DNA from: Coxiellaceae bacterium
Lineage (GTDB): Bacteria > Pseudomonadota > Gammaproteobacteria > Coxiellales > Coxiellaceae
DNA: 64,000 bases
Assembly: GCA_029212925.1 (NCBI GenBank)
Contig: JARGOB010000005.1
Coordinates: 95,663-159,662 of the forward strand
Direction of reading: 5' to 3'
Positions 18,667 to 20,790 of the stretch are shown here, piece by piece. The notes below the pieces were generated by a model. It was not told the origin of the DNA. It saw nothing but the letters and a program-made list of their open reading frames with translations, and ran no database searches. Position 1 is the stretch's first letter. Each line of letters starts with the position of its first letter. The position numbers and the translations under genes are program-made.

Positions 18667-20790
18667 ATGGCAATTCGATTTCGGCAAGTGCTTATTGGTG
18701 TTACCGCCTTACTGAGCTTTAGTGTTCAGAGCGCTTTTGCAGAAAATTTAAGCCAAGTTTACCGCGATGCCCTGCAAAACGATCCGCAATTTAAGCAAGC
18801 GGAAGCCAACTGGTTAACTATCAAACAAAACCTACCGATTGCTGAGTCATCGTTATTTCCAACGCTCAATTTAACCGCCAATCTGGATAAAAATTACTCC
18901 AAAGACCCACTTACTGGCACCGATAGCTTATACAGCACCAATAACTTTGGCATGACGATTACCGAACAAGTGTTCAACTTTGCTAATTGGATGCAAATCA
19001 GCGGCGCTAAATACCAAGTAAGAGCAGCAACAGCGACTTATATGGCCGCCATACAAGATTTAATGCAGCGCACAGCCACCGCTTATTTTGAAACACTCAA
19101 AGCAGCAGCCAGCTTGCGCTTTATCATTGCCAACAAAAACTCAACCTGGCAACTGTACGTACAATCCGAACAAAAATACAAAGTAGGCTTAATCGCCATT
19201 ACCCCAGTGTATGACGCCCAAGCGAATTACGATATTGCCGTCTCACGAGAAATCGATGCACGCAATCAGGTACATGATCGCTTAGAAGATTTGCGTGCGA
19301 TTACCGGTAAGTTTTACACCCGCCTTTACTCATTAGGCAAAAAGCAAGTCCCGCTATTTATTCCGGTACCCAAAAACATCGACAAATGGACCGATATAGC
19401 AATTAAACAAAACTGGGGCATTGTTTCAGATAAATACACATTGCTATATCAAAAGCGTACGATTCAACAAACCGCTGCGGGCAATTACCCCACACTGGAT
19501 GCCAACGCTGCCTGGACAACCACAAACTACAACAGCCAAGGCTCACAAATAGGACTTACCAATAATAAAGCGGCTACCATTGCCGGCTTATCGCTTAACT
19601 TTCCGTTCTTCCAAGGTGGTTTAATTTCTGCTTCAACACAGCAAGAAGAATATAAATACATGAGAGCCAACGCCACCTTGCTCACCACCTACCGTACAGT
19701 GGTGAATGATACGCGCCAATCTTACTTGGGCATCATTGCCGGCATCAGTGGCGTGAAAGCAGATCGCCAATCAGTTATTTCAAACCGCAACTCATACCGC
19801 GCTACACTAGCAGGTTATGCCGTTGGTACACGTACCATGGTCGACGTATTGCAAGCCTTAACACAACTATACAACCAAGAAAGCGTCTACGTATTAGCAC
19901 AATATGACTACATCATTAATCTGGTATCGCTAAAACAAAATGCAGGCACGCTATCCACTAAAGATCTCGCTAAAATTAATTCCTGGCTTATTCAAAATGA
20001 AAAATTGGTGAATAAGAAATTCAACAACACCTACACACCGGGTGATCCACCGCCAGACCTTAAATTACAAGGCCAATCAGATACGTTAGGCCCACCAGCA
20101 ACTGCACCACAGGCACAACCCTATGGTGATGGACCGCGCACAGGTGATATGCCTCGCCTCAATAATTCCGACACATCCAGTCGTGACATTAAGCGTGACC
20201 ACTACGGGGTACAACTGTATGCCAGCAACAACCGCGGTGCAGCGCAATCGTTTATTGTCGCCAATGGCTTAGTCGGCAAAGCCAAAATTATGCGCAGTAA
20301 TGCAAGAAGACTACCGTCCTATAAAGTCATGATGGGTGACTACAAAACATTTGCTAAAGCCAATGCGGCTCGTCATCGCTTACCGAAAACATTGCAAAAA
20401 CTGCACCCATGGGTCAGCCATATTCGCGCCAAGCATCACAAAATTGTTACTGCTAAAGCAACAATTAAAGCACCGAGAGTGACTTATAAAGTAGTACCTA
20501 AACATAAAACGACTACCACCAAACACAAAATCGCAAAAGCAAAAATCGTGAAAGCTGCCACCAAAGCCACCGCATTACCAGCACCAAAAGCTTCCGCAAC
20601 TAGCGTCACGAAGGCTAAAGTAAAAGCTAAAGCGCCGAAGGTGGCTCATGCAATTAAAGCGGCCGCTACGCCTAAAAAGCAAACCAATAAAAAAGTAGCT
20701 CACGCCACACAGCACAAAGAAAAACCTGCAGTAAAAGCCAAACCGATCCAAACAGCTACCGCAGATTTGCAGCTACCTAGACCTTCTTAA
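18667..20790 (+). CDS. tolC: TolC outer-membrane channel fused to a C-terminal SPOR domain and a Lys/Ala-rich tail
   Basis: 707 aa. Residues 1 to about 450 look like TolC (signal peptide; ENLSQVYRDALQNDPQFKQAEANW; two repeat halves). A Pro-rich linker follows. Next comes a SPOR-like segment (HYGVQLYASNN...YKVMMGDYKTFAKANAARHRLPKTLQKLHPWV). The final part is a K/A/T-rich tail of about 120 aa. Confidence 0.8.
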   Translation: MAIRFRQVLIGVTALLSFSVQSAFAENLSQVYRDALQNDPQFKQAEANWLTIKQNLPIAESSLFPTLNLTANLDKNYSKDPLTGTDSLYSTNNFGMTITEQVFNFANWMQISGAKYQVRAATATYMAAIQDLMQRTATAYFETLKAAASLRFIIANKNSTWQLYVQSEQKYKVGLIAITPVYDAQANYDIAVSREIDARNQVHDRLEDLRAITGKFYTRLYSLGKKQVPLFIPVPKNIDKWTDIAIKQNWGIVSDKYTLLYQKRTIQQTAAGNYPTLDANAAWTTTNYNSQGSQIGLTNNKAATIAGLSLNFPFFQGGLISASTQQEEYKYMRANATLLTTYRTVVNDTRQSYLGIIAGISGVKADRQSVISNRNSYRATLAGYAVGTRTMVDVLQALTQLYNQESVYVLAQYDYIINLVSLKQNAGTLSTKDLAKINSWLIQNEKLVNKKFNNTYTPGDPPPDLKLQGQSDTLGPPATAPQAQPYGDGPRTGDMPRLNNSDTSSRDIKRDHYGVQLYASNNRGAAQSFIVANGLVGKAKIMRSNARRLPSYKVMMGDYKTFAKANAARHRLPKTLQKLHPWVSHIRAKHHKIVTAKATIKAPRVTYKVVPKHKTTTTKHKIAKAKIVKAATKATALPAPKASATSVTKAKVKAKAPKVAHAIKAAATPKKQTNKKVAHATQHKEKPAVKAKPIQTATADLQLPRPS

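Follow-up and report, generated by a model that had tools for sequence, protein, structure and literature searches.

A TolC-type channel with a periplasmic C-terminal SPOR domain and a conserved terminal motif in Coxiellaceae

Architecture of the TolC-SPOR gene and its locus

The window analyzed here is a stretch of 64,000 nucleotides from a Coxiellaceae bacterium (GenBank assembly GCA_029212925.1, contig JARGOB010000005.1, positions 95,663 to 159,662 of the forward strand), and coordinates refer to it unless stated otherwise. A single open reading frame (ORF) on its plus strand (18667..20790), without internal stops, encodes a TolC protein of 707 residues that carries a SPOR domain in a long C-terminal extension. 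An initial annotation, made from the sequence alone, had drawn attention to 20020-20790, which corresponds to residues 452-707 and the stop codon. The protein begins with a Sec signal peptide, as read from the sequence (residues 1-25, 18667..18741, plus strand; MAIRFRQVLIGVTALLSFSVQSAFA followed by EN, with the junction AFA/EN), and residue 26 aligns to the first residue of the mature TolC of E. coli (ENL...). Since the signal peptide has no lipobox cysteine, the protein belongs to the TolC type and not to the NodT/OprM lipoprotein type.

Residues 26-446 (18742..20004, plus strand) form the TolC channel core. Pfam detects two OEP (PF02321) repeats (E=8.7e-46), and the 707-residue protein exceeds the cut-off of the NCBIfam model TIGR01844 (225.15 bits) with a score of 265.7 bits. 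The equivalog model for E. coli TolC, NF007002, reached 330 bits, which is under its cut-off of 495, and we therefore regard the protein as a member of the TolC family and not as an equivalog. An AlphaFold2 (AF2) monomer model was built from an alignment of 59 sequences, and the predicted local distance difference test (pLDDT) values of the core were mostly above 90. In a Foldseek search with the whole model, the top matches were structures of E. coli TolC (9tg4, 1ek9) with template modelling (TM) scores of 0.85-0.88 and 31% identity. TolC structures of E. coli, Klebsiella and Salmonella came first (TM 0.84-0.88, E about 1e-29 to 1e-32), and the OprM, CusC and VceC types ranked behind them. 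The first match that was not an outer-membrane factor (OMF) was the SPOR domain of DamX. Gate residues were compared on an alignment to 5V5S/1EK9, which also supplied the E. coli numbering. In this alignment the gate region AGYAVGTRTMVDVLQ pairs with AGYSVGTRTIVDVLD; the equivalents of Y362, R367 and D371 are retained, and the equivalent of D374 is Gln. We take the Y362-R367 lock and the rings of D371 and D374 to be the periplasmic gate residues of E. coli TolC. The TolC core is complete, as had been proposed initially.

The C-terminal extension begins where the periplasmic equatorial domain of E. coli TolC ends. Its first part is the flexible linker that had already been recognized as proline-rich (residues 447-502, 56 residues; 20005..20172, plus strand). 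It is rich in Pro, Gly and Asp (18% Pro, 11% Gly) with an isoelectric point (pI) of 4.9, and it is disordered in the AF2 model (pLDDT 41-58). Linker length and sequence vary among homologues, and the two patches FNNTYTP and GDMPR are constant in close kin.

The linker leads into a SPOR domain at residues 503-596 (20173..20454, plus strand), with the Pfam core at residues 511-583 (20197-20415). With a gathering cut-off of 21 bits, PF05036 scored 30.9 bits on the full protein, 32.8 bits on the isolated C-terminal 256 residues and 34.3 bits in a six-frame search of the genome. Apart from SPOR, the C-terminal 256 residues gave no Pfam match at E<=1. A profile built from five SPOR segments of the TolC type matched the SPOR domain of DamX (2LFV) in the PDB with E=3e-12. 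In the full-length AF2 model the region has pLDDT values of 86-97 and two extra flanking strands, and DSSP assigned the topology beta-alpha-beta-beta-alpha-beta (strands 512-520, 539-544, 551-559 and 582-586, helices 523-532 and 562-570). When a model of the domain alone was searched with Foldseek, DamX was found at rank 2, CwlC at rank 4, DedD at rank 5 and the SPOR domain of RlpA at ranks 6 and 10, all with probabilities of at least 0.97; the E-values were modest (3e-3 to 0.15), which is usual for so short a domain (about 75 residues). Superposition on DamX 2LFV gave a root mean square deviation of 2.4 A over 73 columns. Because Pfam, the profile match to DamX and the fold agree, the SPOR assignment is solid.

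The initial annotation had recognized the domain by its likeness to the SPOR domain of a second protein in the window, and indeed the two align with 29% identity over 75 residues (E=1e-5). This second protein (479 residues, 26291-27730, plus strand) consists of an AAA_22 ATPase, a linker rich in Lys, Ala, Thr, Pro and Gln, and a C-terminal SPOR domain. Its gene follows immediately on aroK-aroB, the place that damX takes in E. coli. Among 1.8 billion representative proteins, the nearest relatives of the TolC-borne SPOR domain were mostly of the AAA_22+SPOR and Sel1+SPOR types, with only a handful of TolCs, and hence the domain does not constitute a TolC-specific subfamily. The six-frame search with the SPOR profile also revealed five other SPOR proteins encoded in the same genome.

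Several observations bear on whether the fused frame is genuine. The homologues P0002 (703 residues, 92% identity), P0003 and P0004, which stem from independent assemblies, have an identical architecture, and in two genomes of the same genus (G001, G002) the gene is a single open frame of 744 and 755 residues, respectively. At the junction between core and linker there are no stops and no long homopolymer, and FNNTYTP is conserved. The frame is valid to its last codon, because the terminal nonapeptide ADLQLPRPS is shared by orthologues.

The tolC-SPOR gene lies 40 nucleotides downstream of a gene for an ArsR-family helix-turn-helix regulator of 98 residues (18330..18626, plus strand; Pfam HTH_5 (PF01022), 27 bits against a cut-off of 22), which occupies the same position in the same-genus genomes L002 and L003. 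Promoter-like sites were found near the two genes at 18296-18323 and 18609-18637, and the two genes are possibly co-transcribed. On the other side, waaA, encoding the 3-deoxy-D-manno-oct-2-ulosonic acid (Kdo) transferase (20777..22051, minus strand; Pfam Glycos_transf_N, E=2.2e-70), converges with tolC, so that the 3' ends overlap by 14 nucleotides (20777-20790), and no convincing intrinsic terminator was found between the two. A small membrane protein of the DUF4282 family is encoded between waaA and parE (22138-22389, plus strand), as it is in Candidatus Paracoxiella cheracis (L034). The order tolC/waaA/DUF4282/parE is kept in the latter genome and partly in L004 and L036. Based on this conserved neighbourhood we identify the gene as the housekeeping tolC at a syntenic tolC-waaA-parE locus and not as an accessory cassette. 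Three further OMF paralogues are encoded in the same genome. An orphan housekeeping locus outside a pump operon is also a feature of E. coli tolC, and the two proteins (1EK9 for E. coli) have in common the family, the fold, the lipobox-free Sec signal and the gate residues named above with the exception of D374. However, the C-terminal tail of E. coli TolC is short and unstructured, whereas about 260 extra residues, comprising the SPOR domain, a polycationic spacer and a terminal LPxP motif, follow the core here.

Distribution of the fusion in Coxiellaceae

Orthologues carry the extension as well, beginning with the same-genus kin. Among the nearest homologues, which we refer to as the clade, a hidden Markov model (HMM) of SPOR detected the domain in 62 of 121 TolCs, and precomputed Pfam assignments place PF05036 in 58 of the 120 best homologues. 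When 64 Coxiellaceae genomes were surveyed, at least 14 genera proved to have a fused TolC, and none was found in two well-sampled genera (8 and 9 genomes). A sample of 24 genomes of relatives contained 11 fused TolCs by HMM, and two more were judged to be fused. None of 10 genomes from other families of the same class and none of 75 other gammaproteobacterial TolCs had the fusion. The TolC-SPOR architecture is typical of Coxiellaceae, where it makes up about half of the family TolCs, that of Coxiella burnetii included. This spread through the family had been missed by the initial annotation, as had the conserved motif at the C-terminus that is described below.

The TolC of C. burnetii (CBU0056; P0013, 616 residues) is an orthologue with 43% identity, is composed of OEP and SPOR according to precomputed Pfam, and bears THLPPPR at its end. 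It differs in that only about 24 residues follow the SPOR domain and a long cationic tail is missing. In the literature searched, CBU0056 is described simply as a TolC homologue. In line with the earlier remark that no characterized TolC of such architecture was known, we found no description of a TolC-SPOR fusion in the literature searched. Domain databases already display this architecture, and its two domains are each well known.

A FastTree phylogeny of the TolC cores requires SPOR to have been gained or lost at least 11 times. A single origin of the domain in the clade was therefore rejected, since this number of changes makes repeated loss or gain likelier.

The cationic tail and the terminal LPxP motif

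Behind the SPOR domain, residues 597-707 form a tail of 111 residues with 23% Lys, 23% Ala, 14% Thr and 9% Pro, which confirms the composition reported initially. With 26 Lys and hardly any acidic residues, it reaches a net charge of +26 and a pI of 11, and it is unstructured in the AF2 model (pLDDT about 35). Composition and model define a disordered spacer at residues 597-698 (20455..20760, plus strand), which is followed by the nonapeptide ADLQLPRPS at residues 699-707 (20761..20787, plus strand) and the stop codon (20788-20790). The comparison of this tail with histone H1, made in the initial annotation, holds for composition only. Residues 597-707 have no Pfam match at E<=1 and are disordered, and the tail is periplasmic because it is C-terminal to a Sec-exported TolC. 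Histone homology was consequently ruled out. Tandem repeats were searched for in the tail DNA and none were found, which speaks against an origin from such repeats.

The tail evolves fast, with 64% identity to P0002 compared to 99% in the core, and its composition is preserved in P0001-P0008. Among the 121 clade TolCs, tails of more than 100 residues are restricted to the source genus with its nearest kin and to two other lineages, and the long polycationic tail is limited to the source genus and close kin. Periplasmic spacers rich in Lys and Ala are also present in a TolA-like protein and in front of the SPOR domain of a DedD-like protein of the same genome.

Outside the window, the genome encodes Lys/Ala/Thr-rich ORFs without an obvious signal peptide (G000:C15:61328, plus strand; G000:C1:59480, minus strand; G000:C25:35392, plus strand). 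An example of this kind has 411 residues and starts with MAKRKQSDEEKPKK. Judged by composition and their apparently cytoplasmic location, these ORFs would be better candidates for histone-H1-like nucleoid proteins than the TolC tail.

The very end of the tail behaves differently. The peptide at the tail end (TATADLQLPRPS) bears an LPxP motif, and ADLQLPRPS is 100% identical in P0002-P0004 despite a tail identity of only 36-64%. Since this nonapeptide stays constant through a fast-evolving tail, we conclude that the tail belongs to the translated protein and that selection maintains its end. It is one instance of a near-terminal LPxP found throughout the clade. In 79 of the 121 clade TolCs, the pattern [LIVMA]PxP falls within the final 16 residues, where 0.076 per protein would be expected from the background rate elsewhere in the extensions, and the first motif position (position 0) is Leu in 77 of these 79. 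The motif is kept by 48 of the 59 clade TolCs that have no SPOR domain, and half of the SPOR-bearing ones stop straight after the SPOR domain, without it. A single outgroup TolC out of 75 contains the pattern, within a Pro-rich run. From this distribution, LPxP looks like an older and more general trait of the clade TolC tail, with the SPOR domain inserted between core and motif and repeatedly lost. To our knowledge the present analysis is the first to point out the terminal LPxP, of which we found no description in the literature searched.

Other proteins of the genome end in a similar way. Genome-wide, 48 ORFs have [LIVM]PxP in their last 12 residues, where a rough estimate gives about 20 by chance. 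LPxP-type ends were seen in a secretin of 738 residues (GLPAPFPAH; G000:C10:230716, minus strand), in a Sel1-repeat lipoprotein (LPPIPAPHTTHVK; G000:C10:95842, plus strand) and in BamD (ELPKPQHHTA; G000:C13:27399, plus strand), all of them encoded outside the window. The LPKP motif of BamD was present in 1 of 120 BamD homologues, and the idea that LPxP marks the C-termini of outer-membrane proteins in general was dropped for BamD. Conservation of LPxP was shown in TolC only, with BamD as the sole other family compared.

A probable peptidoglycan tether and its alternatives

We consider it probable that the protein is a housekeeping TolC whose periplasmic C-terminal SPOR appendage tethers or positions the duct on the peptidoglycan. 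A peptidoglycan tether, possibly at division sites, had been put forward in the initial annotation. The tether is the natural reading of an extension that starts at the end of the equatorial domain; the septal part of that proposal is uncertain, owing to a serine at a glycan-binding position (see below). In each protomer, a linker of about 56 residues leads to the SPOR domain, then to a cationic spacer of about 100 residues and finally to the LQLPRPS end. With one such domain per protomer, a trimer might attach at three points to glycan strands where the sacculus surrounds the alpha-barrel, so that the duct would be held or positioned there non-covalently and with avidity. The Lys-rich spacer could, through its charge, add non-specific attraction to anionic peptidoglycan or phospholipid, might compensate for a lost aromatic residue of the glycan-binding site, and could present the terminal LPxP to a periplasmic partner. 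In-situ cryo-tomography reportedly places the peptidoglycan near the junction of TolC and adaptor. The C-terminal equatorial region of OMFs is variable and has been implicated in adaptor recruitment, and a SPOR-bearing OMF is not mentioned in the review of tripartite pumps concerned (PMC8277102).

TolC is usually portrayed as a free-standing outer-membrane duct, and how trans-envelope pumps sit relative to the peptidoglycan mesh is an open structural question, for which a wall-binding TolC would offer a handle. That the fusion is kept across the family, including the agent of Q fever, suggests that anchoring to the sacculus brings a selective advantage in these intracellular or amoeba-associated bacteria. 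The known SPOR domains of DamX, FtsN, DedD, RlpA (P. aeruginosa) and CwlC (B. subtilis) share the topology and the Gln on strand beta1 with the domain described here. Their hosts are inner-membrane-anchored division proteins, a lipoprotein or a lytic enzyme, however, and not an outer-membrane channel.

We compared the glycan-binding sheet, of which Q351, S354 and W385 of DamX are presumably the key residues according to mutagenesis of DamX and FtsN. Q516, the equivalent of Q351, is conserved in 56 of 59 TolC-SPOR sequences, and A519, the equivalent of S354, fits the A/S consensus of SPOR. Several points weigh against the tether. The aromatic residue that known SPOR domains have on strand beta3 is replaced by Ser: the equivalent of W385 is S551, and the position is occupied by S, A, T, Q or R across P0001-P0008. 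As we assume that Trp of the W385 type is important in DamX and FtsN, and in DamX for septal localization, canonical binding of denuded glycans may therefore be weakened. We infer peptidoglycan binding, for this and for any other TolC-SPOR protein, from sequence and fold. The tail could be a neutral low-complexity expansion, and AF2 docks the LPxP motif nowhere on the TolC monomer. Furthermore, the repeated loss of SPOR on the tree argues that the domain, apparently an old module of the family, is dispensable for TolC function.

Trp is present at the W385-equivalent position in 31 of the 59 TolC-SPOR domains, including that of C. burnetii, and the aromatic residue is absent from the same group, the source genus and its close kin, that bears the long cationic tail. 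This coincidence, which represents a single evolutionary event, suggests that the tail may add electrostatic binding to a glycan site that has become weaker.

SPOR domains of FtsN, DamX, DedD and RlpA go to septa via denuded glycans. By analogy, the SPOR domain of TolC might read the denuded glycans left by division amidases and thereby concentrate TolC at constriction sites, a special form of peptidoglycan binding that differs from general anchoring. Its closeness in sequence profile and fold to the domain of E. coli DamX, a septal-ring protein, speaks for such a role, as does the agreement of Q516 and A519 with the SPOR consensus. We nevertheless regard septal targeting as unlikely, although it is the strongest of the alternatives. 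The aromatic residue has been exchanged, here for Ser, recruitment to a transient septum would be awkward for an integral outer-membrane trimer that barely diffuses, and the five other SPOR proteins of the genome are available for division roles.

Compared to septal targeting, we give a little less weight to an explanation in which the LPxP motif, held on a cationic leash, is the functional element and docks onto an adaptor or envelope protein, or else plugs the electronegative entrance of TolC, leaving SPOR a secondary role. LPxP is commoner than SPOR in the clade, and TolCs without SPOR mostly retain it. It is strongly C-terminal and clade-specific, and the last nine residues are invariant in diverged tails. 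The retained Asp ring equivalent to D371 and the implication of the OMF C-terminal region in adaptor recruitment (PMC8277102) would fit as well. On the other hand, the motif has a pLDDT of only about 35 in the monomer model, half of the SPOR-bearing TolCs do without it, and the BamD comparison shows that LPxP is no general outer-membrane tag. A combined form, which we hold to be slightly less likely again, is that T-x-L-P-x-P docks the duct to a dedicated partner, either an adaptor or an L,D-transpeptidase that cross-links Lys of the tail, and that the SPOR domain and the leash tune the fixation. If docking by LPxP were true, TolC would be a regulated tether between outer membrane and cell wall, in a family known for unusual tethering proteins. 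The clade-specific LPxP offers a concrete lead to a TolC partner.

The SPOR-mediated tether that we favour would be non-covalent, in contrast to what is described for other outer-membrane proteins of this group. Tethering to peptidoglycan is reported for BbpA, BbpB and LimB of C. burnetii; it is catalysed by LDT2 in the case of BbpA and BbpB, and the enzyme tethering LimB is not known (PMC11841132). The FadL-type protein Lpg1810 of L. pneumophila is linked via Lys in its short periplasmic C-terminal tail KTPAPPEKDIT, and the tethered peptide of BbpA is GGPDYVPAPS (PMC11841132). Like TolC, these proteins of Coxiella and the related Legionella lie in the outer membrane, which their short periplasmic tails join to peptidoglycan, yet the links are made by L,D-transpeptidases, whereas a binding domain is indicated for TolC-SPOR. 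It is conceivable that L,D-transpeptidases also cross-link Lys of the TolC tail, or residues beside xPxP, to meso-diaminopimelic acid. Apart from the precedent in Coxiella and Legionella, the 26 Lys of the tail and the xPAPx held by both KTPAPPEKDIT and GGPDYVPAPS, which resembles LPxP, would agree with this. We consider a covalent link improbable, because the resemblance is short and could be due to chance, and the substrates reported do not include TolC. Neither TolC nor CBU0056 nor the terminal peptide of the C. burnetii protein occurs in the text and in nine supplementary files of PMC11841132, and no Lys stands at a fixed distance from LPxP across the clade.

Finally, an artefact, in which a frameshift or missed stop joined tolC to a SPOR gene, or in which the K/A-rich tail is neutral or non-coding read-through, can draw on the interrupted or out-of-frame SPOR part of some Coxiella-like endosymbionts (G059, G061, L033, G004/L005), but it is effectively ruled out by one open frame without a slippery homopolymer, by the same frame in independent orthologues and by the conserved FNNTYTP and terminal nonapeptide; the fusion in one frame, as initially read, therefore stands.

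The endosymbiont genes differ among each other. In the Coxiella endosymbiont of Ornithodoros maritimus (L033) and in G004:C3 (L005), the called ORF stops at about 490-500 residues, and the match is interrupted by three TGA stops in G059:C96 and by one stop in G061:C1. In 5 of 12 small genomes of the genus Coxiella no TolC match was obtained. Judged from these frames, genome reduction in Coxiella-like endosymbionts appears to erode the extension first and the channel afterwards. A second, divergent TolC-like paralogue was encountered in a related genome at G020:C19:124972-126903, with 27% identity and an open frame of 733 residues. Since its match reaches residue 665 of the query, it may be another OMF with a long C-terminal extension.

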